DNA of 32,000 nt from Nitratidesulfovibrio vulgaris str. Hildenborough (GCF_000195755.1 NC_002937.3:3390001-3422000), one strand, 5' to 3'. Positions 1 to 21,880 are shown, numbered from the stretch's first letter. Numbers and translations: made by a program. The notes: generated by a model not told the origin, from the letters alone.

Positions 1-1229
1 TGTACCCCGTTGACCATGATGTTGTAAAACGCCCGGTAGAGCAGGTCCTTGTCTCCGGTCGTCCACAGGTCGGCTGCGGTGTCGCGCGCTATGGTCACGC
101 CGCGTCGTTCGAGTTCGGGTTCCAGAAAGGTCAGCACCTGATCGAGCACCAGCCCGACTTCAACGGCGTCCTCTCTCGGCTTGCGCGGACGTGCATAGTC
201 GAGGAAGTCGTTCACCGTCTGGCTGAGGCGCATGGACTCGTCATAGATGGCTTCGAGGATGCGACGCGACATGGCATCGCCGTTACTGGCGCGATTTCCG
301 TTGCTGCCACCGCTGCCATTGCTGCCACTTATACCGCCGCTGCCGTTGCTCCCCCCGCCACCGCTACCGCCGCCGTTGGCCGCGCGTTTCAGCAGCAACT
401 CCGCACTGGAGCGGATGATGCCGAGCGGATTGCGAATCTCATGGGCGATGCTGGCGATGACCCGGCCCATGCTGGCAAGCTTCTCGTGCTGGTGCAGTTC
501 CCGTTCGAGACGCTGCTTCTCCTGCACGCGTTCGGCGAAGATGCGCTCGGCCCGGCGGATGAACATCTGGAGCAAGGCGAACAGCACCACCGAAGACACC
601 AGCGAGGTGAGCACGATGAGCCACTGGAAGCGCATCACCGTGCCGAGGTCACCCGTGATGTCCTGTGTGAACTCCAGCACGCCCATGACCGCGCCGTCGT
701 TGTCCAGCGAGCTTTGACGGTTCTCGATGCGCAACGGGTAGATGGTGCGCAGCATGTACGACCCCGGTTCCTGATCGAGCAGGAACATCACCCGCCAGAA
801 CGAGATACCCGGTACGATGTCGAAGCTGGGTTCGTCGCCCTGCAACGCCTCGTCGGTGTCGGGCGGTGCAAGGTCGGTGCGACCGAGTTCACTGCGGTCG
901 CTGGAGTACGACACCACCTTGCTGTGGTCGTAGATGCGCAGGCGCGCCACATGCAGCCCGTGGATGGTCGACTGGATGACCTGATCGAGCCGCTCGTACT
1001 GCACGGGCTGGCGCAACGCCACACGCCCGAACCCTATCAGGGTGGGCAGGGTGAAGCGCCGGTATATCTGGTGGTTGAGGTTCTCGGCGAGCAGGATGGC
1101 GAAATCCTGCTGCTTGCGCAGCAACGTCTCGCGGGCGTTGTTGCTGATGACCACCGAAAGCACGATGCTGGAGGTGAGGATGAGCACCAGCGACACCCAT
1201 GACAGCGCACGGGCGAAGCTGAAGGGCAT
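1..1229 (-). CDS. Sensor histidine kinase, N-terminal ~409 codons; the C-terminus runs off the left window edge
   Basis: The gene is absent from the ORF track because its stop lies outside the window. Reading the reverse complement from ATG at 1229-1227 gives MPFSFARALSWVSLVLILTSSIVLSVVISNNARETLL (a TM helix). A periplasmic-size segment follows, then a second hydrophobic helix (FQWLIVLTSLVSSVVLFALLQMFI). Next comes a HisKA H-box, EKLASMGRVIASIAHEIRNPLGIIRSSAELL, with the His codon at 441-443. A purine-rich SD-like run (GGGGGGAAGG) lies upstream of the ATG. Confidence 0.85.
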   Translation of the reverse strand, partial: MPFSFARALSWVSLVLILTSSIVLSVVISNNARETLLRKQQDFAILLAENLNHQIYRRFTLPTLIGFGRVALRQPVQYERLDQVIQSTIHGLHVARLRIYDHSKVVSYSSDRSELGRTDLAPPDTDEALQGDEPSFDIVPGISFWRVMFLLDQEPGSYMLRTIYPLRIENRQSSLDNDGAVMGVLEFTQDITGDLGTVMRFQWLIVLTSLVSSVVLFALLQMFIRRAERIFAERVQEKQRLERELHQHEKLASMGRVIASIAHEIRNPLGIIRSSAELLLKRAANGGGSGGGGSNGSGGISGSNGSGGSNGNRASNGDAMSRRILEAIYDESMRLSQTVNDFLDYARPRKPREDAVEVGLVLDQVLTFLEPELERRGVTIARDTAADLWTTGDKDLLYRAFYNIMVNGV

Positions 1230-1256
1230 CCTGCCGTCGTCGAACCTTCCCCCCAC

Positions 1257-6416: not shown

Positions 6417-6797
6417 TCAACCGAAGATCTTGTCGATCTTCTGCTTCATGGTCTCGGCAGTGAACGGCTTGACGATGTAGTTCGACACCTTGGCCTGCAC
6501 GGCTTCGATGATGTTCTCCTGCTGCGCTTCGGCGGTGACCATGAGGAACGGCATGTCGCCGAACTCTTCGCTGGCGCGCACCTTGCGAAGCAGTTCGATG
6601 CCCGTCATGTTGGGCATGTTCCAGTCGGAGATGACGAAGTCGACCCTATCCTTGTTCAGGGTCTCCCACGCGGTGGTGCCGTCGTCAGCCTCGATGACGT
6701 TGGAGAATCCAAGCTGGCGGAGGATGTTCTTGATGATCCTGCGCATGGTGGAGAAATCGTCCACGACGAGGATACGCATATTCGGATTCGCAGGCAT
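6417..6797 (-). CDS. cheY: Chemotaxis response regulator CheY (126 aa)
   Basis: This is a receiver-only protein with CheY-type motifs: LVVDDFSTMRR, the phospho-acceptor context FVISDWNMPNMTG, and VKPF. AAGGAG lies upstream of the ATG. Confidence 0.92.
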   Translation of the reverse strand: MPANPNMRILVVDDFSTMRRIIKNILRQLGFSNVIEADDGTTAWETLNKDRVDFVISDWNMPNMTGIELLRKVRASEEFGDMPFLMVTAEAQQENIIEAVQAKVSNYIVKPFTAETMKQKIDKIFG

Positions 6798-6819
6798 CTG
6801 AGGCTCCTTGCACGCTGTG

Positions 6820-7617
6820 CTAGACGGCGTCGTGCTCGCCGTAATGGTTGCGGAATTCGCGACGCAGCCTACCCAGCGCCTGTGAGTGCAACTGCGAGAC
6901 CCGCCCCTCGGTGATGCCCATGACTTCTGCGGTTTCGCGCATGTTCAGTTCATCACTGTAATATAATGACAATACCAACTTCTCTCTTGGTGTCAATTCG
7001 TCGATGAGAGAGGCCACGCGCTCGATGAGCTCTTGCGTGGCTGCGGTCTGCATGGGGTCGGCGTCCGACTGCGGGCCGCCTTCACCCGCCAGCGAATCCT
7101 GCATAGCCTCCAGCGAGAGGCACAGCTGGTTCTGCAACGCCTCAAGGCCCAGTCGTACATCCTTCTCGTCCAACCCCGTGGCCTTCTGCAAGTCTTCTTC
7201 AGTGGCGCGCCGCCCCGTCTCGTGCTCGATGCGCTGCATGGCCTCGTCAAGCTGTCGCACCCGTTGCCGCAGACTTCGCGGGAACCAGTCGAGCCTTCGC
7301 AACTCGTCGAGCATGGCCCCACGGATGCGGCTTTCGGCGTAGGTCTCGAAGCGGATGCCCAATTGCGGCTTGAACTTGCCAAGTGCCTCCATGAGACCCA
7401 GCGTACCAGCGCTGATGAGTTCGCCAAGCTCGACGTTGCGCGGCAGCTTGGCCTTCAGGCGCAGGGCGAGGAAGCGTATCTTGGGCGCGTAATGACGGAC
7501 GATGGCCTCCTTCTCCGCCGGGGCGAAGTCGGGCCATGCCGTCGTTCCGGCCTCAAGCGCCTCCCAAGGGCTAGCTGCGGAAGAGCAGCTTTTTCCAGAA
7601 GAACTTGATGTTACCAT
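6820..7617 (-). CDS. fliA: Flagellar sigma factor FliA (sigma-28)
   Basis: Sigma-70 family regions 2 to 4 are present: FETYAESRIRGAMLDELRRLDW, and region 4.2 ETAEVMGITEGRVSQLHSQALGRLR. The ATG at 7617 is the only canonical in-frame start upstream of region 2, and it overlaps the flhG 3' end by 47 nt. Confidence 0.88.
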   Translation of the reverse strand: MVTSSSSGKSCSSAASPWEALEAGTTAWPDFAPAEKEAIVRHYAPKIRFLALRLKAKLPRNVELGELISAGTLGLMEALGKFKPQLGIRFETYAESRIRGAMLDELRRLDWFPRSLRQRVRQLDEAMQRIEHETGRRATEEDLQKATGLDEKDVRLGLEALQNQLCLSLEAMQDSLAGEGGPQSDADPMQTAATQELIERVASLIDELTPREKLVLSLYYSDELNMRETAEVMGITEGRVSQLHSQALGRLRREFRNHYGEHDAV

Positions 7618-8386
7618 CCAGAGCCGCCGGAACGTCCCACGTTTGTACGGTCGCCGCCACCTGACGCACGGCGCGGCAGGCGGGGCTGTCGAGGGCCACC
7701 GAGCAGAACGGACGCTGGCTCACCACCGCCTTGCGGACGATGGGGTCGCGGGGGACGAAGCCCGCGAGGTCGAGCGATACGCCGCTCAAGAAGTGGTCGC
7801 AGGCCTTGTACAGGCGCGTGAACATCTCTTTCGCGCCGCGTTCGTCGGTGGCCATGTTCACCAGTACCTTGAAATGCTCCACCCCGTGGTTGAGCTTGAG
7901 CACCTTGATGAGCGCGTAGGCGTCGGTCAGCGAGGTGGGTTCGGGCGTGAGCACCACCAGCCGCTGTTGCGCAGCAAGGTTGAAATACAGGACATTGTCG
8001 TTGATACCGGCCCCGGTGTCCACGACAAGGTAGTCCACCCTGTCTTCCAGCGCGTCCAGCGCCTCGAGCAACTCGAGTTTCTGCCCCGTGGAGAGCGAGA
8101 GCATCTCGCTCATGCCGGATGACGCAGGCAGGATGTCGAAACCGTAGGGCGTGGGGCACAGCACCTCGTCGAGGGTCGCGCCGTCATGGAAGAGATGGAA
8201 GAGATTGCGCTGCGGGGTCAGGCCGAGCACCACGTCGACGTTGGCAAGACCGAGGTCGGCGTCAAGAAGCACGACGCGTTTGCCCGCCGCGGCGAGGCAG
8301 CAGGCGAGGTTCACGGAGAGGTTCGTCTTGCCCACTCCCCCCTTGCCGGAGGTGACGGAAAAGACCAGTGGCAGTTCAGCGTGCAT
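7571..8386 (-). CDS. flhG: Flagellar number/placement regulator FlhG (FleN/MinD-like ATPase, 271 aa)
   Basis: It has the deviant Walker A SGKGGVGKT, a MinD/ParA fold pattern (LLDADLGLANVDV) and a C-terminal amphipathic helix (NIKFFWKKLLFRS). I chose the ATG at 8386, which lies 11 nt after the flhF stop and is preceded by GTGGAG, rather than the ORF-track start at 8467. Confidence 0.88.
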   Translation of the reverse strand: MHAELPLVFSVTSGKGGVGKTNLSVNLACCLAAAGKRVVLLDADLGLANVDVVLGLTPQRNLFHLFHDGATLDEVLCPTPYGFDILPASSGMSEMLSLSTGQKLELLEALDALEDRVDYLVVDTGAGINDNVLYFNLAAQQRLVVLTPEPTSLTDAYALIKVLKLNHGVEHFKVLVNMATDERGAKEMFTRLYKACDHFLSGVSLDLAGFVPRDPIVRKAVVSQRPFCSVALDSPACRAVRQVAATVQTWDVPAALDGNIKFFWKKLLFRS

Positions 8387-8397
8387 CGGCAGCTCCA

Positions 8398-9495
8398 CTA
8401 TGGTTGACGGGCCGCGGGGCCGTCGGAGGTTCGTCCGGGCAACTGGCGCTTGAAGACCAGCCGCCACAGTGCGCTCTCGCTGGCGGAGACGAGGCTGCCA
8501 CGCAGCCCCGGCCCGAACGAGAGGGCGGACACGGGCAGACCGTTCGCCGCGGCGACGTTGACCAGTGTTCCGTAAGTACAGGCTTCGTCCAGCTTCGTCC
8601 AGACGATGCTTGCGGTTCCGGGTGCGCCGTAGCGGTTCACGAAGTCCGCCGTCTGCTGCCCCCCGCAGTGCGGGGGCAACACGAGGTGCACCGCCACATC
8701 GTCACCGCCCAGACCGAGATGGGCGAGGCGTTGCGTCAGGGTCTCGCCTCGGGCGAGTCCGGGCAGGTCGACGAAGACGCGGTCTGCGTCACAATCGAGG
8801 GCCGCGCGCATGGCACCGTCGTCGGCGGCCTCGGCATAGCCGAAACCGGAGAGTTCGGCCCAGTGGCGCAGCAGCAGCCTGCCGTTGCCGCGCTCGCAGT
8901 CGGCGTTGACCACCTGCACGCGCCCGCCTGCGGATTCCGCCCCCTGACCGCGCAGGGCCATGCGCACCAGCGTGGTCGTCTTGCCGCTGCCGAAGGGCCC
9001 GGCGAAGACGTGCACCCGCTGCGGCCACGCCTCGCGCGACCACGGCTTCACCGGCACCATGCCGGTGAGCGGTTCGAGAACCGAGGCGCCCGGCGAGGTC
9101 AGCAGCCGACGGTACAGGGACATGAGCACAGTATCCTCCACGCCCTCGCGTTCAAGGAACTCCAGTGCAAGCCGCTGGCGCGGGGTGAGCTGTTCGAGGC
9201 GCAGCCCCGGCTTCATCAGGGCGAGCAGGTGTTCCTTGATGCACGACCATTCGCGATGCCACGACTCCCAGCCGGCGGGCAGTTGCGAGGGGTCGCCCCC
9301 GTCTGCCGCCGCACCCGCCCCATGGGGCGTGCTGCCGTTGCCGTTGCGCTCCACGCCTGCGGTCACCTCGCAGAAACGGCGTCCCTCCTTGCGACCGGAA
9401 CGGGTGGAGAGAATGACGGCGTCAGGGCCGAGTTCGCTCTTTATCTGGGCCAGTACGGCCTGCGTAGAGGGGCCTGTGTACGTCTTTACCTGCAT
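8398..9495 (-). CDS. flhF: Flagellar SRP-type GTPase FlhF
   Basis: The N-terminus MQVKTYTGPSTQAVLAQIKSELGPDAVIL is a typical FlhF B-domain start. The G1 motif is GPFGSGKTTT and the SRP-GTPase pattern is DLPG...TKLDE. The start overlaps the flhA stop (TGATG). Confidence 0.9.
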   Translation of the reverse strand: MQVKTYTGPSTQAVLAQIKSELGPDAVILSTRSGRKEGRRFCEVTAGVERNGNGSTPHGAGAAADGGDPSQLPAGWESWHREWSCIKEHLLALMKPGLRLEQLTPRQRLALEFLEREGVEDTVLMSLYRRLLTSPGASVLEPLTGMVPVKPWSREAWPQRVHVFAGPFGSGKTTTLVRMALRGQGAESAGGRVQVVNADCERGNGRLLLRHWAELSGFGYAEAADDGAMRAALDCDADRVFVDLPGLARGETLTQRLAHLGLGGDDVAVHLVLPPHCGGQQTADFVNRYGAPGTASIVWTKLDEACTYGTLVNVAAANGLPVSALSFGPGLRGSLVSASESALWRLVFKRQLPGRTSDGPAARQP

Positions 9496-11606
9496 CAGTC
9501 GACCACCACGTTACCTACGGCCTGAAGCCGGATGTCAGGGGGAATCTCCGCTTGCGAGAGCACGGGGATGTTGGGGAGAAAGCGCATGAGCAACTGGGCG
9601 AGATGGGGGCGAGTGCCGGGCTGCGTGAGCACAACGGGTTGACCGTCGGTGCCCACGGCATTCTCCACCTGCGTGTTGACGCTCTGGATGAGCCGCTGCG
9701 CGGTGGATGGGTTGAGAGCGAGATAGGCGCCGCCTTCGGTCTGGCGGATGGAGTCCTGAAGAGTGCGTTCCACATTGGCGTCGAGCGTGATGATGGGCAG
9801 CGTGCCTTCGCTGTCCATGTGCGGCTTGACGATGCTGCGCGCGAGACGTTCGCGGACGTATTCGGTGAGGGTGTCGGGGTTCTTGATGGCGGGGCCGTAG
9901 TCGGCCAGTGTCTCGACCACCGAAAGCAGGTCGCGCACCGAGACGTTCTCGCGCACGAGGTTCTGGAGCACCTTCTGCACCACACCCAGTGAAAGGACGC
10001 CGGGAACCAGTTCCTCCACGGCCTTGGGGGCGTGCTTGGAGAGGTTGTCGAGCAGTCCCTGCACTTCCTGTCTGCCGAGGAACTCGGAAAGATGACGGCG
10101 GAAGACCTCGGTGAGGTGCGTGGCGATGACCGTGGACGGGTCCACCACCGTGTACCCAGCCAGCATGGCCTCTTCCTTCTGCGATTCTGGAATCCACAGC
10201 GCGGGCAGGTTGAACGCGGGCTCGCGCGTCTCGATGCCCTGAATGCGGTGGCGCGCCGTGCCGGGGTCCATGGCGAGGAGATGGTCGATGAGAATCTCCG
10301 CCGACGTCACCTGGTTGCCCTTGATGAGCAGGGCATACTGCCCCGGCTTCAGCTGGAGGTTGTCGCGCAGGTGCAGCGAGGGGATGACCACGCCCATGTC
10401 CAGCGCGAACTGACGGCGGATGGAACGGATGCGCGTGAGCAGGTTGCCGTTCTGCTCCTCGTCCACCAGCGGAATGAGGCCGTAGCCCACTTCAAGTTCC
10501 AGCGCGTCGAGGGGCAGCAGCGCCTGCACCTCTTCGGGGGTGTCGAGGCTGTCGCCCTTGCCCTTGGCGGCCTTGCCGCCAGCCCGCTTGGCGTCTCCCT
10601 GCGCTTCGTCCCCGTCGCGGTCGCCAAGCAGCTTGGCGAAGAAGAAGAGCGAGGCCGAGAAGATGAGGAAGGGCACCGTGGGCAGTCCCGGCACGAGGGC
10701 GAAGAGCAGCAGCACCCCGGAGACGAGGCGCATGGCGCGGGAGTTGTAGGTCAGCTGGCCGAGGAACTCTTCACCCATCTTCGCTTCGGAGGCAGCACGC
10801 GACACGATGATGCCCGCCGCCGTCGAGACGATGATGGAGGGGATGGTGGAGACGAGACCGTCACCGACGGTGAGCAGGGTGTAGGTGGTCAGGGCGTCGC
10901 GCCACGGCATGTCCTTCTGGATGATGCCGACAAGCAGGCCGCCGATGATGTTGATGAGGGTGATGAACATGCCCGCGTTCACGTCACCGGAGACGAACTT
11001 GCCCGCACCGTCCATGGCGCCGTAGAAGTCGGCCTCCTTGCGGATGTTCTTGCGGCGTTCGTTGGCCTCCGTCTCGTCGATGAGTCCGGCGTTGAGGTCG
11101 GCTTCGATGGCCATCTGCTTGCCGGGCATGGCGTCGAGGGTGAAGCGCGCGGCCACTTCGGCGATGCGGGTGGTACCCGCCGTGATGACGTTCTTGTTCA
11201 GGATGAACAGGATCATGAAGATGACCGCGCCGATGACATAGCTGCCGCCGACGACGAACTCGCCGAAGGCGCGAATGACCTCGCCCGCGGCGTCCGTCCC
11301 TTCGTCGCCGTGCAGCAGGATGAGTCGCGTCGAAGCCACGTTGAGCGCAAGGCGCAGCAGGGTGGTCACCAGCAGCAGCGACGGGAAGATGGAGAACTCC
11401 AGCGGCGACATCATGAACATGGAGGTGACGAGAATCACCAGCGAAAGCGAGATGCTGCAACAGAGCAGGATGTCGAGGAAGAACGTGGGCAGGGGCACCA
11501 GCATGACGAAGAGGATCGTCACCACGCCCCCGGCAAGCAGGATGTCGCCCTGTTTGGCGAAACGGGCGTAATCTATGCGGGGAGCGACACCGGGTTGCGA
11601 AGCCAT
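9495..11606 (-). CDS. flhA: Flagellar type III export gate protein FlhA
   Basis: FHIPEP family signatures are present (FPSLLLVTTLLRLALNVASTRLILL, GDGLVSTIPSIIVSTAAGIIV) along with a large C-terminal cytoplasmic domain. I prefer the ATG at 11606 (MASQPGVAPRIDYARFAKQGDILLAG) because AGGTG lies 8 nt upstream and the N-terminal length is then canonical. The ORF-track ATG at 11669 (724 aa) is the alternative. Confidence 0.9.
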   Translation of the reverse strand: MASQPGVAPRIDYARFAKQGDILLAGGVVTILFVMLVPLPTFFLDILLCCSISLSLVILVTSMFMMSPLEFSIFPSLLLVTTLLRLALNVASTRLILLHGDEGTDAAGEVIRAFGEFVVGGSYVIGAVIFMILFILNKNVITAGTTRIAEVAARFTLDAMPGKQMAIEADLNAGLIDETEANERRKNIRKEADFYGAMDGAGKFVSGDVNAGMFITLINIIGGLLVGIIQKDMPWRDALTTYTLLTVGDGLVSTIPSIIVSTAAGIIVSRAASEAKMGEEFLGQLTYNSRAMRLVSGVLLLFALVPGLPTVPFLIFSASLFFFAKLLGDRDGDEAQGDAKRAGGKAAKGKGDSLDTPEEVQALLPLDALELEVGYGLIPLVDEEQNGNLLTRIRSIRRQFALDMGVVIPSLHLRDNLQLKPGQYALLIKGNQVTSAEILIDHLLAMDPGTARHRIQGIETREPAFNLPALWIPESQKEEAMLAGYTVVDPSTVIATHLTEVFRRHLSEFLGRQEVQGLLDNLSKHAPKAVEELVPGVLSLGVVQKVLQNLVRENVSVRDLLSVVETLADYGPAIKNPDTLTEYVRERLARSIVKPHMDSEGTLPIITLDANVERTLQDSIRQTEGGAYLALNPSTAQRLIQSVNTQVENAVGTDGQPVVLTQPGTRPHLAQLLMRFLPNIPVLSQAEIPPDIRLQAVGNVVVD

Positions 11607-11681
11607 GCTTTTGACACCTGTCTGCCGGGTTTCCGGCGTTCCGGGGTTGTCTTTCGGGTTTCCGGGCATCCCCGGACGGGG

Positions 11682-12755
11682 CTACACCCCGCGCGCCTGC
11701 GGCCTGAACTTGGCGAGGCCCGCGAGAATGGCGGCCACGGCCTTGTAGAGTTCGGCGGGGATCATGTCCCCGACTTCAACACTCTTATACAAGGCCCGTG
11801 CCAGCGGCTTGTTCTCGCGGATGGGCACGTTGTGCTCGCGGGCCACCTCGCGGATGCGCTTGGCCAGATGGTCGGCACCCATGGCGACCACGATGGGGGC
11901 GGGGGCCGCGGTCACGTCGTAACGCAGCGCCACGGCGATGTGCGTGGGGTTGGTTATGACCACGTCCGCCGTGGGCACCTCCTTCAGCATGCGCTGGGCC
12001 ATGACCTTCATCATCTTCTGCCGCTGCTGCGACTTGACCACGGGGTCGCCTTCCGCCTGCTTGCGTTCGTCCTTCACCTCGTCCTTGGTCATCTTGAGGT
12101 TCTCGTTGTAGTCCCAGCGCGTGTACCAGAGGTCCACGGCGGCGATGATGACCATGGGCACGAGGGCGTACTTCACCATGCGTGCCCCCGTCTCCAGCAT
12201 GTAGACGGCGATGCCCGACATGTCGGCGAAGTAGAGGGGCAGCAGGTTCAGCATCTCCTGCTTGAGCACGATGATGGGCGCGATGCCGATGAACACGGCC
12301 TGAAGCAGGCTTTTGCCGAGGCGTATGAGCGTCTGCGGCGAAATGAACATGCGCTTCAGGGCGTTGATGACGTTGAAGCGCGACCAGTCCAGTTTGAAGA
12401 CCTCGGTCGTCCACAGCTTGCCCACCTGAAGACGCATGGCGATGAAGGCGGCAAGGCCGATGAACAGCATGATGGGCAGAAGCATGATGGCGAGTTCGCC
12501 CGCACTCCACAACAGCAGCGAGTAGACCGTCTGTTCATTGGGCGTGAAGTCGTGCGGACGCGAGAGGAAGAAACGAAAGACCTCCTGCATGTGCTCGTTG
12601 AGCACACCCAGCATGAACGTGATCGCCACAAGGCCCGCGAAGGTGGTGACCGCCTTGGAGACCTCCTGCGACTTGGCGACGTTACCCTTGTTGCGCGCCT
12701 TGTTGAGGCGTTTTCGGGTCGCCTGTTCTGTTCTGCTGGGGTCTTTCTGTGCCAT
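11682..12755 (-). CDS. flhB: Flagellar export switch protein FlhB
   Basis: The N-terminus is MAQKDPSRTEQATRKRLNKARNKGNVAKSQE. There are four TM segments and the NPTH autocleavage motif (VVITNPTHIAVALRYD). GGAAAGGA lies upstream of the ATG. Confidence 0.92.
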   Translation of the reverse strand: MAQKDPSRTEQATRKRLNKARNKGNVAKSQEVSKAVTTFAGLVAITFMLGVLNEHMQEVFRFFLSRPHDFTPNEQTVYSLLLWSAGELAIMLLPIMLFIGLAAFIAMRLQVGKLWTTEVFKLDWSRFNVINALKRMFISPQTLIRLGKSLLQAVFIGIAPIIVLKQEMLNLLPLYFADMSGIAVYMLETGARMVKYALVPMVIIAAVDLWYTRWDYNENLKMTKDEVKDERKQAEGDPVVKSQQRQKMMKVMAQRMLKEVPTADVVITNPTHIAVALRYDVTAAPAPIVVAMGADHLAKRIREVAREHNVPIRENKPLARALYKSVEVGDMIPAELYKAVAAILAGLAKFRPQARGV

Positions 12756-12821
12756 GTGTCATGTCCTTTCCGTGAAGGGCCTCGCCCCTCTCTTCGTCAT
12801 GGCCGGATACGGCCTGCCCCC

Positions 12822-12848
12822 ATATTCCGGGCACCATATCTGGGCACC
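12822..12848. repeat. Imperfect tandem direct repeat ATAT(TCC/CT)GGGCACC x2 in the fliR-flhB spacer
   Basis: Read directly from the sequence: ATATTCCGGGCACC (12822-12835) is followed immediately by ATATCTGGGCACC (12836-12848). Confidence 0.6.
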
Positions 12849-12879
12849 ACAGCCGGGCGGCGCGTGCGCCGTGGCCGCG

Positions 12880-13671
12880 TCAGACACCCTTGGGGCTTAC
12901 ACCGTGCAACAGGTGCAGCATCATGGGCGGCATTCCGATGATGAACTCTTCGATGTACTGTGCGAGAATGGTGAACAGGAGCCCCATGAAGAAGAATCCC
13001 ACGGCGATCTTCAGCGGGAAGCCGATCATCAGCAGGTTCATCTGCGGCGCGGCGCGGGCCATGAGCGCGAGGGCGAGTTCCACCAGAAAGAGCGTCACCA
13101 GCACCGGAGCGGCTATCTTCACCGCGATCACGAACATGCCCCCCGCGAGGCGCACCAGCTCATTGGCGACGGCGGGATTGGCCACCAGCCCCCCTGCGGG
13201 CACCAGCGCGAACGATTCGGCGAAGGCACGCAGCAGAAAGAGGTGCCCGTCCAGCGCAAGGAAGGTCAGCAGCGATACCATGTAGAGGAAATGCGAGGTG
13301 ATGCTTATCTGCGCCCCGGAAAGGGGGTCGGCGATGCTTATCATGGTGAACCCCATCTGGAAGCCCAGAAGCTGCCCCCCCGTCTGGATGCCAGCGAAGA
13401 GGAAGTGCACCGCCATGCCCAGCACCAGCCCCAGCACCAGTTCACTGGCGAGCATCACCACCAGTTCGAAGGGATGCGACGGCATGACAGCACCCGCCAG
13501 CGAAAGGCGTGGCCACAGGGCCATGGCCATGACGAGGCACAGGGCCACCTTCACCTGCATGGGCACGGCGTCACCGCCGAAGAAGGGCAGCAGGAACATC
13601 ACGAGGCTCACGCGCATGAAGGTGAGCAGAAAGCCAAGGGTGGTGGCCGGGTCGAAAGCGAAGAGGTCCAT
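12880..13671 (-). CDS. fliR: Flagellar export apparatus protein FliR (263 aa)
   Basis: This is a polytopic membrane protein. The N-terminus MDLFAFDPATTLGFLLTFMRVSLVMFLLPFFGG is typical of FliR/SctT. I chose the ATG at 13671 rather than the ORF-track start at 13773. The SD is weak. Confidence 0.85.
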   Translation of the reverse strand: MDLFAFDPATTLGFLLTFMRVSLVMFLLPFFGGDAVPMQVKVALCLVMAMALWPRLSLAGAVMPSHPFELVVMLASELVLGLVLGMAVHFLFAGIQTGGQLLGFQMGFTMISIADPLSGAQISITSHFLYMVSLLTFLALDGHLFLLRAFAESFALVPAGGLVANPAVANELVRLAGGMFVIAVKIAAPVLVTLFLVELALALMARAAPQMNLLMIGFPLKIAVGFFFMGLLFTILAQYIEEFIIGMPPMMLHLLHGVSPKGV

Positions 13672-13775
13672 GCCACGAGGTGAGCAAAATACGGGCCACG
13701 AACGGACATACGGCACGACGGCCTTGCCTTGCCACGCGGATTCTGGCACTGCCCGTTGAAACGCAAGGAGCATCC

Positions 13776-16864: not shown

Positions 16865-19528
16865 CTAGATGTCGCCGCCGTCAGTGTCGGAAGGTCGCCC
16901 GTCGCCGGCACCCTCCATCCTCTCCACGGGTTCATCGCGCAGCCGGGCGCATTCCGCGAGCAACTTCTCGCGCCGCACGGCCAGTTGCGCCACGTCGGTC
17001 ATGATCATGTCCATCTGCCGGGTATGGATGGTGAGATGCCCCGCCACACGCAGGTGGCGTTCCGCCGTCTCGCGGTCTATGCCCTCGAGCCGCGCAGTCA
17101 GCGCGTCACGACGCACCACGGGCGTGAAGCCGAAATTCTGGAGCAACTCCGCCACGAACTGCACCCGCAGGATGCGCCGTTCGATGTTGGCGGCCCCGCC
17201 GCGCAACTGGAACACCACATAGTTCTCCTGCGTACGTTCGCCCACCAGCGACTCCACGGCCACGAAGTGGAAGCCGAAGCGCGAATGCAGGCTGCAGTAG
17301 TTGGACGAGACCATGAAGTAGTTCTTCTCGGAGAAGAACGCCGACTGCGACGCCGGGTCGAGGTGGGGGTTCGCCGTGGCCTCGAACATGACGGACAGGA
17401 AGCCCTTGGCGTCCACGGGAGGCGGCCCCTCCCACGGGATGGCGTTCATGCCCCGCCACAACGCGCGGAAGGGAACGGACTGGATGCGGGAGGCGAGCAC
17501 GAGGGGCCCCTTGAGCCCGACGGGGAAGGCGTCATCAAGGTCGACCACCCAGAATTGCTTGGGCACGTCGCACTGCAACTGCTTGACCCGCGACGGGGCA
17601 TACGCCTGCTGCGACCCGAAGCGGAACATCTCCCCCACCGCCTGCTCATGGCAGTAGCGGGCGATGTCGTGGAAGGTCTGGCAATTGCGGGCCTTGAAGT
17701 CGGGGCTTTCGGGGTCGAAGGTCAGGGGCAGGATGTGGTGCGCGGCCTCTGCAAGGGTGCGGTGCACGGGACTGCGCGGCATGAAGTTGTGTGCGGGCGG
17801 TGCGGCGGACACGATGTCGTAGACATAGTCCGCGTAGACCACCCCGGCATCGCCGCATACCGTCACCGAGTCCACTCCCGAGAGAGCCTCCACCGCCCCC
17901 CGCAGACCGAAGACGGCGGGTTTGCCGAATTCACGGGCGACGGCACCAAGGCTACAGGCGGGCGTACCGTATTCGGCGACCACGGCGCAGGCGCGGTCGA
18001 GGACCATGCCCCACGCCGCCAGCGGGCGTTCCACCACCAGCACCCCGCCGTCGGGGAATGTGCGGATGTCCTCAAGGGTCCTGACCACATGCACAGGCCC
18101 GCACGCGGCACCGGGGCTCACGGTCACGCCGCCGCAGGCCAGCGCCTCGGCGGGGCATGAATCCTCGATGCGCTCTTCGGGGGGCAGGGGGGCCGCTTCG
18201 GGCAACAGGCGCGCATGAAGAAGCGTGAGACGCCCAGCTGCATCAAGCAGCCAGTCGACCTCCTGCCGACAGCCCGCGGCAGCCTCCACGGTGAGGGCGA
18301 GGTCGGCCACCGCGCACGCCTGCGCGTCGTCCAGCACCGGGGCATCGGGCCGTGCATGACTGTGCAGCCTGACACCCCGGGGTGCCGTGCGCCACACATG
18401 GTAGGCGTCCACGTCATGTTCCCCGGTTTCCACGGACTCGGGCAGCCCCGCCCCCGCATAGACATGCACACTGTCGTCGCGCACATGGAGGGGGTTGCCC
18501 GTGTAGGCCACGCCCCCCGCCACGGGGTCGCCCACGACGAAGAACCCTACGCACACGCAGGTGCCCGCGTCGCGCAGCCCGCGATAGCGGCGATAGATGG
18601 TGGCCTGTGGCGAATATTTGAGGGCCAGCGTGGCGCGGAAGGCGGCAAGCACACTCTCGCGGTCGGCGTCGGTGCCGGAAAGCAGCGGCCCCCACAGTGT
18701 CATCCCCCCGTCATCCGCCTGCGCGCCTTCGCCTCCGCTGATGACGGACACGAGGCCCGTCGAGGCATCATGCCCCGTGCCGGGAATGGCCCCGTCGGTG
18801 GTCAGCGGCCACACCCGGCCTCGCAGCAATACCCGCACCGGCACACCACCGGTGCGTTGACGCAGGCTGCGCATGGAGTCCATGAGTGCGTCGGCCACAT
18901 CGTCAGGCACGGGCGCGTCAAGGATGAGCGAACGGATGGATGACGACAGACCCTCGATGTTGTCGGGGCGAATACCCCCAGAGGCCTGCACCCTGCGGCT
19001 GACCTCCTCCTGAAGGCCGCCATGGCGCATCATGCGCTGGCATGCGGCTGCCGTGGCGATGAACCCTTCGGGAACGCGCACGCCCAGTGCGCCGCGAAGG
19101 CCCGCGAGGCGGGTCATGGCCGGGTCGGCCCGGTCGGCACTGTCGAGGCCGGGGTCTCCCAGAGGCAACGCCAGCGGGCCGTCCATGTCGTCGGTGCGCC
19201 CGTAGACGAGGGCGGCGACCTCCGACTGCACGGCGTTGAAACGTTCCTCGAGCGCAGCGAACCTGCCCGGCGCCAACTCGTCTAGCTGGCGCATGCACTG
19301 GAACACCTGCGTGGTGATGCGGGTACAGAGCGCACGCACGGTCTGCATGCCGAACGGGTTGACGCAACACAGCGTCAGTTCCAGTTCGGTCATCAGTTCC
19401 TGGAACTTGCCCCATGCGCCCAGAAAGAGCTTGAAGCGGTGGTAGCGCGCGGCGAAGGCGTCTTCAGGGCGCGTTGCGGACGAAGCGGCGGTCTTCTTGC
19501 GGAACGGGAGCCAGCGCAGCCATGACAT
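16865..19528 (-). CDS. PEP-synthase / pyruvate-phosphate-dikinase-like protein (887 aa) with a degenerate ATP-grasp domain, a swivel domain lacking the catalytic His, and an unassigned C-terminal domain
   Basis: Residues ~135-445 resemble the PpsA/PPDK nucleotide-binding domain (VPEGFIAT, VGFFVVGDPVAGGVAYTGNP, YAGAGLPESVETG, EVDWLLDAAGRLTLLHARLL). Residues ~465-560 resemble the PEP-utilizer mobile domain (GGVLVVERP...AVVAEYGTPACSLGAVAREFGKPAVFG). I recognise no family for residues ~575-887. GAAGGA lies 7 nt upstream of the ATG. Confidence 0.85.
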   Translation of the reverse strand: MSWLRWLPFRKKTAASSATRPEDAFAARYHRFKLFLGAWGKFQELMTELELTLCCVNPFGMQTVRALCTRITTQVFQCMRQLDELAPGRFAALEERFNAVQSEVAALVYGRTDDMDGPLALPLGDPGLDSADRADPAMTRLAGLRGALGVRVPEGFIATAAACQRMMRHGGLQEEVSRRVQASGGIRPDNIEGLSSSIRSLILDAPVPDDVADALMDSMRSLRQRTGGVPVRVLLRGRVWPLTTDGAIPGTGHDASTGLVSVISGGEGAQADDGGMTLWGPLLSGTDADRESVLAAFRATLALKYSPQATIYRRYRGLRDAGTCVCVGFFVVGDPVAGGVAYTGNPLHVRDDSVHVYAGAGLPESVETGEHDVDAYHVWRTAPRGVRLHSHARPDAPVLDDAQACAVADLALTVEAAAGCRQEVDWLLDAAGRLTLLHARLLPEAAPLPPEERIEDSCPAEALACGGVTVSPGAACGPVHVVRTLEDIRTFPDGGVLVVERPLAAWGMVLDRACAVVAEYGTPACSLGAVAREFGKPAVFGLRGAVEALSGVDSVTVCGDAGVVYADYVYDIVSAAPPAHNFMPRSPVHRTLAEAAHHILPLTFDPESPDFKARNCQTFHDIARYCHEQAVGEMFRFGSQQAYAPSRVKQLQCDVPKQFWVVDLDDAFPVGLKGPLVLASRIQSVPFRALWRGMNAIPWEGPPPVDAKGFLSVMFEATANPHLDPASQSAFFSEKNYFMVSSNYCSLHSRFGFHFVAVESLVGERTQENYVVFQLRGGAANIERRILRVQFVAELLQNFGFTPVVRRDALTARLEGIDRETAERHLRVAGHLTIHTRQMDMIMTDVAQLAVRREKLLAECARLRDEPVERMEGAGDGRPSDTDGGDI

Positions 19529-19565
19529 GTGGCGGTCCTTCGTCCTGCGTCCCCTGCGGGGGCGT

Positions 19566-19970
19566 TCAGGCCCTGTCGCCCTCGGCGAGCTTGCGGTCGA
19601 GGCGGCTCTGCTTGCAGGCGTCCTCGATCTTGTAGAGAAGTTCGTCGAAGTCCGCGGGCTTCATGAGATAACCGAACGCGCCAAGGCGCATTCCCTCGAC
19701 GGCGACGGTCATGTCCGCATGGCCCGACAGCATGATGACCTCGGTACCGGGGTGGTCGCGCCTGATGTGCTCCAGCGCGCCGATGCCCCCCATGCCGGGC
19801 ATCTTCACATCCATGACCACCACATCGACCTCATGGTCGGCAAGGTGGGCCACGGCCTCTTCACCGCTTGCCGCCGTGGCGGTGAGCATGCCCCGCCGCG
19901 CAAGCCGCAGCGAGAGCATCTCTGTGCATTCGGTCTCATCGTCGACGAGAAGGACCCGTATGCCGTTCAT
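19566..19970 (-). CDS. Receiver-only response regulator (134 aa)
   Basis: The canonical REC residues are present: D10-D11 (LLVDDE), D54 (VVVMDVKMPGMGG), S82 (IMLSGH) and K104 (YLMKP). There is no output domain. GGAGA lies 6 nt upstream of the ATG. The stop is 37 nt upstream of the 887-aa gene. Confidence 0.9.
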   Translation of the reverse strand: MNGIRVLLVDDETECTEMLSLRLARRGMLTATAASGEEAVAHLADHEVDVVVMDVKMPGMGGIGALEHIRRDHPGTEVIMLSGHADMTVAVEGMRLGAFGYLMKPADFDELLYKIEDACKQSRLDRKLAEGDRA

Positions 19971-20004
19971 GGCACGTCTCCGAGTTCAGGCGTATGGTTC
20001 TGTA

Positions 20005-20033
20005 TTTCTATCGCTCTTCGGGCATTGCCACAA
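20005..20033 (-). promoter_or_regulatory. Candidate sigma-70-type promoter for the response regulator / PEP-synthase-like pair
   Basis: On the minus strand this reads TTGTGG - 17 nt - TAGAAA, inside a locally AT-rich patch about 30 nt upstream of the ATG at 19970. This is pattern-based only. Confidence 0.25.
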
Positions 20034-20194
20034 GGGGCGTCCGTAGCGGGCGGGCAGACATCGGCCCGACCCTCCGGTCGGACACCGCATCGTGCTGCCA
20101 TCGGGAGGGGGTGCCCCCCGCGAACACGGAACAGGGGCGCGGCCACTGCACGGCCGGTGACGGGCCCGCCAAAGGTGCGCAACGGCCCCGCGCG

Positions 20195-20860
20195 CTAGCC
20201 GTGCCCGCCCCCTGCGCGCACGCACGCATCCTCGTGCAGGACGTGATGCATGCAGTAGCGCCATACACGCCACGCAAGGTAGCCCATCACCAGCCCCACC
20301 ACCCAGCCGGCGAGGATGTCACTGGGGTAGTGCTTGCCGAGGTACAGCCGCGACCAGCCAACCAGAAGAGGCACGGGCAGCAGCCACGGCCGCAGCAACG
20401 GCACGGCGAGCATGATGACGAGACAGACAGCCATGGAATTGGCGGCATGCGACGACACGAACGATGAGCCCTTCACCGCCGTCGGCACGAAGTCGGGCGG
20501 CGTGATGCTCCATGCGCCCTCGTCCACCATGTGCACGCCCGCAAGGGCTTGCATGGGGCGCAGCCTTCCGGCCTGCCCCTTGATGACGTTGCATGTGGCG
20601 TCGGTGACGCCTGCGGCAAGCCCCGCCAGCAGCAGCACGGCTGCCACGCGGCGCCAGAGGGGCCGTTCAGGCAGAAGGGCCGCGCCCTGCGGGCCTGAAC
20701 GACGTCGCAACCACAGGAAGCCTCCGGCTACGACAGCCAGCAGAAGCCACAGGGCCATGCCCGACACGGCGGGCATGAGCACGTCGAGAAGAGGGGTGCG
20801 CCACGTACCGTTGGCGAGCCTGAAAAGCGCGAGATCCCACGAAGGGGTGGCGAAGGGCAT
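20195..20860 (-). CDS. PAP2 superfamily membrane phosphatase (undecaprenyl-diphosphate / lipid phosphatase-like)
   Basis: All three acid-phosphatase motifs are present: KGQAGRLRP (KxxxxxxRP), SFVSSH (PSGH-like) and SRLYLGKHYPSD (SRxxxxxHxxxD). The protein has multiple TM helices. Confidence 0.85.
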   Translation of the reverse strand: MPFATPSWDLALFRLANGTWRTPLLDVLMPAVSGMALWLLLAVVAGGFLWLRRRSGPQGAALLPERPLWRRVAAVLLLAGLAAGVTDATCNVIKGQAGRLRPMQALAGVHMVDEGAWSITPPDFVPTAVKGSSFVSSHAANSMAVCLVIMLAVPLLRPWLLPVPLLVGWSRLYLGKHYPSDILAGWVVGLVMGYLAWRVWRYCMHHVLHEDACVRAGGGHG

Positions 20861-20877
20861 GGGGGATTAACCGGAGA

Positions 20878-21783
20878 TCAGTTGAGGATGTAGCGCATGG
20901 GGTTCACGCATACGCCGTTGACACGCACTTCGTAATGGAGGTGGGGGCCGGTCGTACGGCCTGAACTGCCGACGTAGCCGATGATGTCGCCACGCTGTAT
21001 CGACTGGCCTTCCTTGACGACGAAGCGCTGCATGTGGGCGTAACGGGTAGACAATCCGGCACCGTGCTGGAGGATGACGCAGTTGCCGTAGGCGCCGTCG
21101 GTTCCGGCGAAGGTCACCGTGCCTCGCGCCGGGGCCCATATGGGTGTACCGGGACGGTTGTTGATGTCGAGCCCCTTGTGGAACTCGCCCCTGCTCGTGA
21201 ACGGGGACTTGCGCGAACCGAACGTTGAGGAGATGAACCCTTCAGTGGGCCAGATGGACGGTGTGGCTGCGAGGATGTCGCGGTTGGCGCGCAGGGCATG
21301 CAGCAACTCCTGCTGGCGGACCTCTTCGAGCCGTACATCCGTGGCAAGCTGCTTGATGAAGGTGTGCATCTTGCGCGCCAGCAACTCCTGCCGGTGCAGC
21401 GGCAGATACCCCTTGGAGAGGTCTTCGGTGCGCGAACCGCCCATGGAGGTCTGCACTTCGGTGGGGTCCTTCTCCATGTTGATCATGAGCCGCAGCTTGG
21501 TATCGAACTGCTGCACGCGGGTGAGGTCCGCCTGCAAGCCCTGCAACTTGCCCGTCATGGCAAGCAGCTGCGTACTCTGTTCTTCGATGGTCTTCTCGGC
21601 CTCGGCAAGGCGCTGTTCCACCTCATAGGTGTGCAGGTACTTGCCCGCCAGCCAGATGGTGAGCCCCATGAGGCTGGCGACGAACAGCACCCCGGCGATA
21701 CCGCACCAGCCGCGCATGAACAGGTTGCGGCACGAACCGCCCCGTTCGCGGAGGATGACGATGTGGTATTTGCCGAACAGCAT
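20878..21783 (-). CDS. M23 family metallopeptidase with an N-terminal TM anchor and coiled coil (EnvC/NlpD-like)
   Basis: The LytM-domain motifs are HKGLDI (HxxxD) and GPHLHYEV (HxH). A coiled-coil region lies upstream of them. I chose the ATG at 21783 (MLFGKYHIVILRERGG), with AAAGG 5 nt upstream. The alternatives are 21840 and 21867. Confidence 0.85.
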   Translation of the reverse strand: MLFGKYHIVILRERGGSCRNLFMRGWCGIAGVLFVASLMGLTIWLAGKYLHTYEVEQRLAEAEKTIEEQSTQLLAMTGKLQGLQADLTRVQQFDTKLRLMINMEKDPTEVQTSMGGSRTEDLSKGYLPLHRQELLARKMHTFIKQLATDVRLEEVRQQELLHALRANRDILAATPSIWPTEGFISSTFGSRKSPFTSRGEFHKGLDINNRPGTPIWAPARGTVTFAGTDGAYGNCVILQHGAGLSTRYAHMQRFVVKEGQSIQRGDIIGYVGSSGRTTGPHLHYEVRVNGVCVNPMRYILN

Positions 21784-21880
21784 GGGAACCTTTGGCCGGG
21801 GTTGCGGGACACGGAACAGGTCGAAACGGGTCGTAGCCATCAATGCCGGATGCCCACAGACCACCATTGTTAACGTTGCG

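Follow-up and report, generated by a model that had tools for sequence, protein, structure and literature searches.

A receiver-only response regulator gene paired with a gene for a predicted pseudo-dikinase in Nitratidesulfovibrio vulgaris

The closest described relative of the 887-aa protein considered here is PpsA, the pyruvate, water dikinase of Neisseria meningitidis (2OLS), its best match in both sequence (phmmer, 2.6e-22) and fold (Foldseek, 8e-16), with the same order of an ATP-grasp domain and a swivel domain. Unlike PpsA, the 887-aa protein has an extra N-terminal bundle, no TIM barrel, and a C-terminal domain without a relative in PDB or BFVD, and it has no catalytic His, no Lys, and no Glu/Gln Mg ligands. 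The combination of an ATP-grasp domain with a swivel His serving a non-PEP acceptor domain is a theme of the superfamily shared with RPH, the hydroxyphenylethanone kinase HpeHI, and PigC/RedH; fold matches to 5HV2, 5HV6, and 9GOJ and partial NCBIfam matches to small-molecule dikinases were obtained. It is the small-molecule dikinases of the RPH and HpeHI type that the active members of the family described below most resemble in logic (PMC4844700, PMC12167813). In RPH the ATP-grasp domain is followed by the RIF-binding domain and the swivel lies at the C-terminus, whereas in the 887-aa protein the swivel is central. RPH-type enzymes are not linked to a receiver (REC), in contrast to the 887-aa protein, which is REC-linked and, judging from its residues, catalytically dead. 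Identity with RPH was rejected because of this domain order and a score of 71 bits with NF041857 (cut-off 999); the C-terminal domain alone gave no significant match in the PDB, with no RPH chain among the matches listed.

VadK (Rv1127c), a regulatory kinase of Mycobacterium tuberculosis that derives from PPDK (PMC13400623), is like the 887-aa protein in being of the PPDK/PpsA type, in having lost the TIM barrel, and in standing outside central metabolism. Unlike that protein, it keeps the catalytic His and autophosphorylates, has neither an added C-terminal domain nor a REC partner, and belongs to a different lineage. For the second protein of the pair, a 134-aa REC, the counterparts are single-domain CheY-like response regulators, with the full phospho-acceptor and switch set and no output domain. 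No description of a dikinase-like protein or pseudoenzyme as the output of a receiver was found in the searched literature. A further parallel is offered by regulatory pseudokinase and pseudoenzyme paralogues, in which a dead copy is likewise retained beside an intact one, its binding domains kept and its catalytic residues lost. To our knowledge, there is no example of a pseudoenzyme regulating its active sibling in the PEP-utilising dikinase superfamily.

The pair is located in a 32,000-nucleotide stretch of DNA from Nitratidesulfovibrio vulgaris str. Hildenborough (D. vulgaris below), referred to as the window, and its features are collected in Table 1. The 887-aa protein corresponds to WP_014524633 / ABM27175 / AAS97707, as indicated by cluster membership. 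The initial annotation placed a REC gene 37 nt before a same-strand 887-aa ORF with its own Shine-Dalgarno sequence, and this was verified for both ORFs, the gap, and the Shine-Dalgarno-like GAAGGA situated ca. 9 nt ahead of the ATG. A scan of the 37-nt spacer found no terminator-like site. The arrangement is the same in the locus of an 81%-identical relative (L085), where REC precedes the large ORF with a gap of 44 nt. As for the region between REC and the PAP2 gene, its length and AT-rich patch were confirmed, but the promoter-like character ascribed to it found no counterpart in a sigma-70 consensus scan of the 224 nt, which gave no site; the two-gene unit may have its promoter there.

Table 1. 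Features of the gene pair and its surroundings (positions counted from the first nucleotide of the window)
Feature	Position	Strand	Basis
887-aa ORF, predicted pseudo-dikinase	16865-19528	minus	ORF, exactly as initially annotated
C-terminal alpha+beta domain, residues 587-865 (~290 aa), family-specific	16934-17770	minus	AF2, conservation
Swivel (PEP-utilizers mobile) domain, residues 462-566	17831-18145	minus	Pfam, AF2, PpsA alignment
Ser526 codon AGC at the catalytic-His position	17951-17953	minus	alignments, codon check
Degenerate ATP-grasp domain (PPDK_N, PF01326), residues 120-445	18194-19171	minus	Pfam, motif alignment, fold match
Disordered insert, residues 245-271	18716-18796	minus	pLDDT <50
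N-terminal three-helix bundle, residues 21-109, family-specific	19202-19468	minus	AF2
REC-to-large-ORF intergenic spacer, 37 nt	19529-19565	minus	sequence read directly
REC-only response regulator, 134 aa	19566-19970	minus	ORF, exactly as initially annotated
Spacer upstream of REC, 224 nt, relatively AT-rich patch	19971-20194	minus	sequence read
PAP2 gene	20195-20860		beyond the 224-nt spacer from REC

At the level of fold the 887-aa protein belongs to the PEP-utilising dikinase superfamily, with an ATP-grasp domain followed by a swivel. Its full-length AF2 model (pLDDT 83.6) matches PpsA, RPH, HpeI, and PPDK at 1e-16 to 1e-9 in Foldseek; the matches of the ATP-grasp domain are PpsA 2ols (8e-16), the ATP-binding domain of RPH (TM 0.72 on target), and HpeI. 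Both domains had been surmised from the sequence, and Pfam recovers them as PPDK_N and PEP-utilizers. The PPDK_N match is split over two stretches (96 bits, 3e-27), as against 235-302 bits in intact relatives; four of the five scanned have it in one stretch, and only in P0072 (235 bits) is it likewise divided into two. The swivel is recognized by PF00391 (4e-11 over residues 491-562), is modelled confidently by AF2, and aligns to the phosphohistidine domain of PpsA. The helical N-terminal extension proposed earlier proves to be a confidently modelled three-helix bundle (helices 21-53, 61-85, and 91-109, pLDDT of the block 74-97) with no Pfam match; it is kept in both the dead and the active clade and is 63% identical inside the former.

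The catalytic motifs were compared by alignment to the genuine PpsA (2ols) and to active family members, and the substituted codons were verified. The catalytic His, found in the context GG.TxH in PpsA and AGH in active family members, is replaced by Ser526; the dead clade has S, Q, or R at the equivalent position, and His is present in each of the 26 active-clade proteins aligned, as well as in the active-locus proteins in which a motif search located the site. The Lys of the ATP-grasp GGK motif is lost, as initially annotated, but the residue now in its place is Thr139 (context PAMTRLAGL...GVRVPEGF), not the Arg named there. The RSS..ED segment, earlier called unrecognisable, is indeed so: RSS is replaced by R236-G-R and ED..FAGQ by GGMTLWGP, the region reading RGRVWP, then the insert 245-271, then GGMTLWGP. 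The insert, clade-specific and variable in length, stands where the nucleotide-binding RSS..ED loop would be. Asp425 and His438 occupy the Mg-ligand positions of Glu and Gln, respectively. These two substitutions and Ser526 in place of the phospho-carrier His had been missed in the first reading of the sequence. All the elements for phosphoryl transfer from ATP to His are thus replaced—the His, the Lys, RSS..ED..FAGQ, and the Mg ligands—which makes the 887-aa protein a predicted pseudo-dikinase. Some database entries are named "phosphoenolpyruvate synthase" or "pyruvate, water dikinase", in line with an ordinary PpsA or PPDK of central metabolism. That identity is refuted by the lack of PEP-utilizers_C, of the catalytic His, and of the ATP-grasp catalytic residues, and by the scores with the NCBIfam PpsA models NF005057 and TIGR01418 (127 bits against a cut-off of 598 and 121 bits against 740, respectively); the earlier view, which excluded a housekeeping PEP synthase, is upheld.

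The C-terminal third had also been described as unlike the PEP/pyruvate-binding TIM barrel, and Pfam, AF2, Foldseek, and hhalign all agree. Residues 575-887 are modelled as an alpha+beta fold, not a (beta/alpha)8 barrel (pLDDT 83, pTM 0.74), and PEP-utilizers_C (PF02896) gives no match in the protein even at E<=0.1. A structure search of PDB and BFVD returned nothing better than E=0.026 (TM<=0.23), a profile search of PDB sequences no significant match (best E=0.56), and hhalign with the genuine PpsA a probability of 0.2%. Conservation in the protein is highest in this domain, which holds 30 of the 56 invariant columns of the alignment, among them C616-x3-H620-D621-x4-C-H-E, R750/H754, N769, G777-G778-A, R784/R788, D808, and H835-T-R-Q-x-D840. 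All 30 are kept in the 887-aa protein, and inside the dead clade the domain is 69% identical. Its profile finds 1,474 representative proteins, with the 887-aa protein as the top match (7e-135); the best 150 are mostly 830-950 aa long with the domain at about residues 550-870, and about a quarter of them are shorter entries, probably fragments.

The conserved polar constellation could make the C-terminal domain itself an enzyme, which would count against a non-catalytic role of the protein. Examples would be a metal-dependent hydrolase, phosphatase, or transferase acting through the invariant Cys, His, Asp, and Arg residues (C-x3-HD-x4-CHE, R750/H754, GGA(A/N), R784/R788, HTRQxD), with the dead dikinase half as a REC-responsive scaffold. 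The retention of these residues in the dead clade, of which the domain is the most conserved part, is consistent with such an activity, and the failure to detect any relative of the domain leaves room for an active site that has gone unrecognised. However, among the best 150 matches it occurs solely fused behind an ATP-grasp domain and a swivel, which is easier to reconcile with an acceptor or substrate site for the swivel His than with an enzyme acting on its own; no stand-alone full-length C-domain proteins were seen, the short matches looking like fragments, and neither Pfam nor NCBIfam gives a catalytic-motif match. An enzymatic C-terminal domain is therefore considered unlikely.

The relatives of the 887-aa protein form a family found at more than 571 genomic loci, mostly in Thermodesulfobacteriota. 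Its architecture comprises the N-terminal helical bundle, the ATP-grasp domain, the swivel phospho-histidine domain, and the alpha+beta C-domain of ~290 aa in place of the TIM barrel. Most members retain every catalytic motif and, from these features, look like enzymes with a new acceptor domain. Of the two possibilities offered in the initial annotation, a pseudo-dikinase and an enzyme with a different acceptor, the former thus holds for the 887-aa protein and the latter for most of its family. As supposed there, no functional description of the family was found in the literature searched, and no function is assigned to it in databases, the source records naming only a "PEP/pyruvate-binding domain-containing protein" or "phosphoenolpyruvate synthase-related" protein.

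The common cassette consists of a dCache histidine kinase gene, one to three REC-only genes, often genes for a TauE-type permease and a ~230-aa membrane protein, and then the dikinase gene. A REC-only gene lies on the same strand within 3.6 kb upstream of 53 of 60 active genes and directly upstream of 26 of 67; the linkage reaches the deepest branch of the family (P0072), in which the two genes overlap. Fusion to a DSP-type phosphatase occurs in some of the relatives. The tight, often translational, coupling of REC-only and dikinase genes across the family would also suit active members serving as alternative phosphodonors of receivers, with the phosphoryl group passing from ATP to the swivel His and on to the REC Asp, the receiver docked on the C-domain, and the dead paralogue acting as a decoy or sink for REC or REC~P. 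Transfer from His~P to Asp is the chemistry of the phosphorelay. VadK, derived from PPDK, is reported as an autophosphorylating regulatory histidine kinase (PMC13400623). But the same cassettes encode conventional histidine kinases (dCache or GAF, HisKA + HATPase_c), which are obvious donors for the receivers, and since the catalysis of REC phosphorylation resides in the REC domain itself, an invariant Cys/His/Asp/Arg constellation would not be needed in a docking domain. The DSP-type phosphatase fusions, moreover, make a phospho-ester a likelier substrate than an acyl-phosphate, and a phosphodonor role is regarded as improbable.

The REC of the window consists of a single Response_reg domain (PF00072, 1.2e-29, residues 6-115). 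The complete phospho-acceptor set claimed for it (D10/D11, D54, S82, and K104) was confirmed by reading the sequence, with Y101 as the aromatic switch residue. Since it combines the complete set with the lack of an output domain, its target has to be a partner protein. Its identity to the RECs upstream of dead paralogues is 76% (L001) and 62% (L009), and to those directly before active cassettes 57% (Desulfacinum, L016) and 55% (a Syntrophobacteraceae MAG, L020); it is 49% to the REC of the active paralogue of D. vulgaris itself, as against 27% to the CheY encoded in the same window. These values mark it as an orthologue of the RECs accompanying active dikinase genes. No kinase gene adjoins it within the window; at other loci dCache kinases accompany the dikinase family.

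The dead forms make up one monophyletic clade, restricted to Desulfovibrionaceae, and the dead form arose once, in this family. A functionless, decaying remnant of a duplicated dikinase, in effect a pseudogene, could be suspected from the loss of all catalytic motifs and the disordered insert in place of the nucleotide loop. It is made very improbable by the intact ORFs (in 17 loci and in P0002-P0034), by the full-length relatives of 850-945 aa with 45-81% identity in many Desulfovibrionaceae species, and by the REC synteny kept in relatives. The clade has also acquired conserved motifs of its own, RGR[VL]WP (12 of 17 dead-clade proteins) and WGP (15 of 17), both found in none of 81 intact proteins. 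In all, 71 near-full-length homologues of the 887-aa protein were found, and its 90%-identity cluster has 27 member sequences. With the monophyly, the identity of the C- and N-terminal domains, and a GC3 of 0.84 in the 887-aa gene, whose codon-position GC is typical of real genes, these features indicate that the dead clade is under purifying selection and not in decay.

The dead gene is accompanied by an intact paralogue. Downstream sequence was sufficient at 12 dead-form loci, and in every one a same-strand module of a dCache histidine kinase, REC, and active dikinase is present, usually adjoining the dead gene; in L009 the dead gene runs with its stop into the start of the active one. The co-resident active copies form a clade of their own, each member of which has a dead copy in its locus or genome. 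In D. vulgaris the intact paralogue is AAS97684, 23 accessions from AAS97707 and outside the window, encoded on the same strand in a dCache HK-REC-dikinase operon; the ~24 kb between the two modules include a flagellar cluster. This separation, and a Nitratidesulfovibrio locus (L081) with no dead copy within 8 kb of the active one, count against a regulatory partnership. The conservation of the REC neighbour holds for the active genes, but for the dead form it is confined to the closest lineages (L085, L001, and L009); among the 15 dead-form loci that belong neither to the Nitratidesulfovibrio nor to the L009 lineage, 13 lack a REC directly upstream of the dead gene, and therefore REC control may be lineage-specific or exerted through the downstream REC.

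The reading preferred here, with a probability of about one half, is that the dead protein would not be catalytic but would regulate the active module as its partner, under the control of REC. It would serve as a regulatory or adaptor subunit of the HK-REC-active signalling module and be switched by its phosphorylated REC partner. Using its conserved N- and C-terminal domains, it would share a ligand or binding partner with the active enzyme, which would be modulated by heteromer formation or by competition with the dead protein. A broader proposal, more tentative, is that the whole family represents an unrecognised output branch of two-component systems, in which the single-domain receiver directly gates, or is phosphorylated by, an ATP-grasp/swivel-His dikinase acting on an acceptor bound by the C-domain, with the Desulfovibrionaceae dead paralogue as a receiver-switched pseudoenzyme subunit controlling the active enzyme. 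The gene pair brings to light a large, unstudied family of dikinases linked to two-component systems. If the broader proposal is true, the dead protein would be the first regulator of the pseudo-dikinase type in the PEP-utilising superfamily.

The 887-aa protein of the window was aligned with the sequence of the N. meningitidis PpsA structure, with a genuine PpsA (P0074) and with 47 members of its own family, with codons checked, and shows a replacement at each element of the dikinase half-reaction. The lysine of the GGK type is Thr139, the RSS..ED..SFAGQ segment reads R236-G-R-V-W-P, then a 27-residue insert and G-G-M-T-L-W-G-P, the glutamate of the (D/E)-(I/V)-E-W motif is Asp425, and the glutamine of L-Q-x-R-P is His438. 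The initial annotation had noticed the altered lysine and RSS..ED segment, both of which are indeed replaced, and had missed the decisive change, the loss of the phospho-carrier histidine (GG.T.H in PpsA, A-G-H in the family), which is Ser526. Judged from these residues, the protein would be incapable of ATP-to-His phosphoryl transfer. In Pfam it matches PPDK_N with 96 bits split over two stretches and the PEP-utilizers swivel domain (4e-11, residues 491-562), with no PEP-utilizers_C match at E<=0.1, while its best NCBIfam match, PpsA, reaches 127 bits against a cut-off of 598. These scores and the catalytic motifs rule out an ordinary PpsA, a reading of negligible probability, and bear out the earlier claim that this is not a housekeeping PEP synthase. 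When the metabolism of sulfate reducers is reconstructed, the labels "phosphoenolpyruvate synthase" and "pyruvate, water dikinase" on these genes are incorrect.

The dikinase fold is nevertheless predicted to be kept in the full-length AlphaFold2 model (pLDDT 83.6, pTM 0.72; domains in the table), which Foldseek matches through its ATP-grasp and swivel modules to PpsA (2OLS, 8e-16), rifampin phosphotransferase (RPH), HpeI and PPDK. By fold the protein is a member of the PEP-utilising dikinase superfamily, and it fails every defining test of both PpsA/PPDK and RPH. Its N-terminal bundle was considered as an HPt-like domain and rejected, His30 being found in only 36 of 48 sequences.

A model of residues 575-887 built with 50 homologues (pLDDT 83, pTM 0.74) shows an alpha+beta domain of helices and beta-meanders and not a (beta/alpha)8 barrel, in agreement with the initial annotation, which had seen no TIM barrel at the C-terminus. 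Three results rule out a diverged TIM barrel: the secondary structure of the AF2 model, an hhalign comparison with a genuine PpsA (probability 0.2%), and a profile search of PDB sequences, in which nothing was significant (best E=0.56). The domain has no Pfam or NCBIfam model, Foldseek returned only noise (best E=0.028 in PDB and 0.026 in BFVD, query-normalised TM <=0.23), and it is without a relative among the structures searched (PDB, BFVD). It is also the most constrained part of the protein, with 30 of the 56 invariant columns of a 48-sequence alignment. The invariant residues, among them C616-x3-H620-D621-x4-C-H-E, R750/H754, N769, G777-G778-A, R784/R788, D808 and H835-T-R-Q-x-D840, look like a putative ligand, metal or acceptor site. 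That the C-domain is an enzyme in its own right, with the dead dikinase half as its scaffold, is a doubtful alternative.

Features of the window and of related loci, and predicted domains of the 887-aa protein
Feature	Sequence	Position	Strand	Remark
Truncated histidine kinase at the edge	window	1-1256	-	region 1-2918
Phosphoglucose isomerase	window	about 1257-2600		precedes the kinase
Overlap with L083	window	2921-1		L083 1-2921, 99.2% identity
Flagellar cluster	window	6417-13773	-	CheY, FliA, FleN/FlhG, FlhF, FlhA, FlhB, FliR
Dead dikinase ORF	window	16865-19528	-	887 aa
Segment lost with the shorter start	window	19187-19528	-	N-terminal helical bundle
REC ORF	window	19566-19970	-	134 aa
Ser82 codon of the REC	window	19725-19727	-	Thr/Ser switch
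PAP2-family gene	window	20195-20860	-	221 aa
PAP2 and M23 peptidase genes	window	20195-21867	-	M23 peptidase 329 aa
Three-helix bundle	887-aa protein	residues 21-109		AlphaFold2 model
ATP-grasp domain	887-aa protein	about residues 120-445		AlphaFold2 model; insert 245-271 disordered
Swivel domain	887-aa protein	residues 462-566		AlphaFold2 model
C-terminal domain	887-aa protein	residues 587-865		AlphaFold2 model
Intact operon of D. vulgaris	L083	7904-12655		dCache kinase (565 aa), REC (121 aa), dikinase (884 aa)
Permease and membrane protein	L016	3606-5655
Permease and membrane protein	L070	3731-5715
Permease and membrane protein	L009	1482-3457
Permease and membrane protein	L081	12269-14237
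Phosphatase fusion P0072	L084	1793-5479
Second family member	L048	9042-11636
Second family member	L068	8787-11309

Among 1.84 billion representative proteins, which are clusters at 50% identity, a profile of the C-domain matches 1,474 with E<=1e-3, of which 743 reach E<=1e-30, so the family comprises at least 1,474 clusters. Of the best 150 of the 1,474 matches, most have the domain around residues 550-870 in a protein of 830-950 aa, and it therefore appears to be confined to the dikinase architecture; roughly a quarter of these 150 are shorter, fragment-like entries. A scan of one genome per species found at least 571 stretches encoding relatives, and among the matches listed most are from Thermodesulfobacteriota (Desulfovibrionaceae, Syntrophobacteraceae, Desulfobacteraceae, Desulfacinum, Desulfomonile). 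Among 94 family genes of at least 600 aa, in 80 loci, RSS..ED is kept in 77, nearly all of which retain FAGQ and the histidine too, and is absent in the other 17; the lysine and the E..Q.R motif were checked in alignments only. Intact members score 235-302 bits for PPDK_N, in a single stretch in four of the five scanned. With their motifs retained and these scores high, the majority resemble functional dikinases whose acceptor domain is new.

The genes of the family are embedded in two-component cassettes. Of the 60 intact genes with enough upstream sequence, 53 have a REC-only gene, coding for a stand-alone receiver, in the 3.6 kb upstream and in the same orientation; in 26 of 67 it is directly upstream. 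Outside Desulfovibrionaceae the typical cassette comprises, in order, a dCache histidine kinase, one to three REC-only genes, a TauE/SafE permease, a membrane protein of ~230 aa and the dikinase, often with a second kinase 3' of it. The permease (~415-445 aa) is directly upstream of the dikinase in 43 of 80 loci, and the conserved membrane protein, which has no Pfam family, occurs in 47 of 80; both are absent from the window, where the PAP2 protein is unrelated to the latter (no BLASTP similarity). These two neighbours may point to the substrate of the family, to which they and certain phosphatase fusions are the sole clues. The fusions, P0072 (on the deepest branch) and P0192, are deep-branching proteins of 1,228-1,252 aa with a DSP-type (dual-specificity/PTP-like) phosphatase after the C-domain, each preceded by an overlapping REC-only gene; such an arrangement hints at a phospho-ester substrate cycle. 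In two loci outside Desulfovibrionaceae (L048, L068) a second, very divergent member directly 3' of the first keeps RSS..ED and FAGQ, its His motif not being matched by the regular expression, and paired paralogues may be a wider feature of the family.

In the window, the two ORFs stand where the initial annotation had placed them, 37 nt apart, with GAAGGA ~9 nt before the ATG of the larger one, and are separated by a 224-nt spacer, in which a sigma-70 promoter scan gave no site, from the PAP2-family gene. The smaller product is, as proposed, a receiver domain alone (Response_reg 1.2e-29, residues 6-115), with the phospho-acceptor and switch residues D10/D11, D54, S82, Y101 and K104 present. 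Codon-position GC (GC3 0.84) marks the 887-aa ORF as a real gene. Its product is WP_014524633/ABM27175, with the Hildenborough entry AAS97707, "phosphoenolpyruvate synthase-related protein", assigned by cluster membership. In GenBank AAS97707.1 has 773 aa, while the same gene has 887 aa in DP4, RCH1 and the window; the shorter form is probably a start-site mis-annotation, since it would lose the conserved N-terminal helical bundle. The genes of a PAP2-family membrane phosphatase and an M23 peptidase directly precede the REC gene on its strand, an arrangement also kept in L085, an 81%-identical relative with the synteny of the window.

The window REC is 76% and 62% identical to those upstream of dead genes in L001 and L009, 57% to the cassette REC nearest the permease in Desulfacinum (L016), 55% to that upstream of the dikinase in a Syntrophobacteraceae MAG (L020) and 49% to that of the active D. 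vulgaris paralogue, versus 27% to the CheY of the same window. By these identities to the cassette receivers of relatives, the pairing in the window would be ancient and not fortuitous. Among the 15 other dead-form loci, a REC lies directly upstream of the dead gene in only 2, L001 and L009; the specific pair is conserved only in part of the dead clade. The three RECs preceding dead paralogues (window, L001, L009) have Ser at the Thr/Ser switch (MLSGHA), and all examined RECs preceding intact paralogues have Thr (LTGHA).

Neighbour joining, with PpsA as the root, places the degenerate proteins in a single clade, all of them from Desulfovibrionaceae. Their ORFs are intact, at 45-81% identity, and identity within the clade is 69% in the C-domain, 63% in the N-terminal bundle and 50% in the ATP-grasp domain, which suggests that both terminal domains of the family are kept and strongly constrained in the dead protein. 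The motifs that took the place of the catalytic ones are conserved as well: 12 of 17 dead-clade proteins have RGR[VL]WP and 15 of 17 have WGP, versus none of 81 intact ones. At the His position the residue varies (S, Q or R), and hence nothing has evolved there to stand in for the nucleophile. The intact ORFs, domain identities and replacement motifs argue that the clade is not decaying, and make non-functional decay of the dead gene highly improbable.

Dead genes are accompanied by an intact sibling module. Of the dead-form loci, 12 have enough sequence downstream, and each of them has there, in the orientation of the dead gene, a dCache histidine kinase, a REC-only gene and an intact member; the order is dead, kinase, REC, active in the D. 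piger group, REC, dead, kinase, REC, active in L001, and TauE, membrane protein, REC, dead, active in L009, where the stop of the dead gene overlaps the start of the active one. The co-resident active copies form a clade of their own, and each of its members has a dead copy in the same locus or genome. Three candidates were discarded: in L081, the large neighbour of the active gene is a hybrid kinase from outside the family and so no dead copy; the 470-aa "gene" that precedes the dead copy in D. piger loci is wrong-frame, Arg/Gly-rich, present in only three loci and spurious; and in L001 a 661-aa ORF on the minus strand is likewise spurious, a plus-strand dCache kinase being the real gene.

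The intact paralogue of D. vulgaris is AAS97684 (884 aa), 23 protein accessions from AAS97707. From the overlap of its contig, L083, with the left end of the window, it is located about 7-10 kb past the left edge, in the orientation of the dead gene and about 24 kb away from it. The interval holds hflX and a flagellar export/regulation cluster (gene names from the Pfam-annotated syntenic L085). The two modules are adjacent in L001 and other Desulfovibrionaceae and have the flagellar cluster between them here, which suggests that the cassette was split by rearrangement in the D. vulgaris lineage. A separate two-component system, the truncated kinase at the window edge with, in L083, a sigma-54-dependent response regulator after it, also sits between them. 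The locus tags of the two modules, by accession arithmetic, are probably DVU3237/3238 and DVU3214-3216.

The dead gene is thus encoded with a putatively phosphorylatable single-domain receiver and co-occurs with an intact sibling module. The best-supported reading, to which we give about an even chance, is that its product, switched by the receiver, serves the kinase-REC-dikinase module as a non-catalytic partner with a regulatory or adaptor role. It might form a heteromer with the active paralogue or compete for the ligand or partner of the active enzyme through the conserved C-domain. The earlier suggestion of a regulatory pseudo-dikinase wired to a receiver is thereby upheld as to the replaced catalytic residues and the REC gene 37 nt away, and its regulatory part keeps the even chance just given. 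In its logic the dead form is like pseudoenzyme paralogues that regulate an active sibling, and the active members are like RPH or HpeHI-type dikinases with a private acceptor domain (PMC4844700, PMC12167813). The active enzymes could instead be phosphodonors for the receivers and the dead form a decoy; VadK, an autophosphorylating regulatory kinase derived from PPDK (PMC13400623), is a precedent, but conventional kinases sit in the cassettes, and we consider this unlikely.

A literature search of incomplete coverage found no study of this two-component-linked dikinase family and no paper on a receiver-coupled dikinase or pseudo-dikinase, in line with the initial remark on the lack of a known function, and nothing on these D. 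vulgaris genes, response-regulator and RB-TnSeq supplements included. PEP-utilising dikinases are a small, well-studied superfamily in which each new acceptor domain has revealed new chemistry, the known acceptors being rifampin, glucans, prodigiosin precursors and hydroxyphenylethanones. What is new is a large, signalling-linked branch of it, wired into two-component systems of sulfate reducers and syntrophs, with an acceptor domain without a relative in the libraries searched (PDB, BFVD) and with a dead paralogue that is conserved; specialists would find this moderately surprising. D. vulgaris Hildenborough, genetically tractable and with both copies, intact and dead, accompanied by receivers of their own, is therefore a ready system for asking about the target that the family phosphorylates, the control of such an enzyme by a single-domain receiver, and the role of a pseudo-dikinase.
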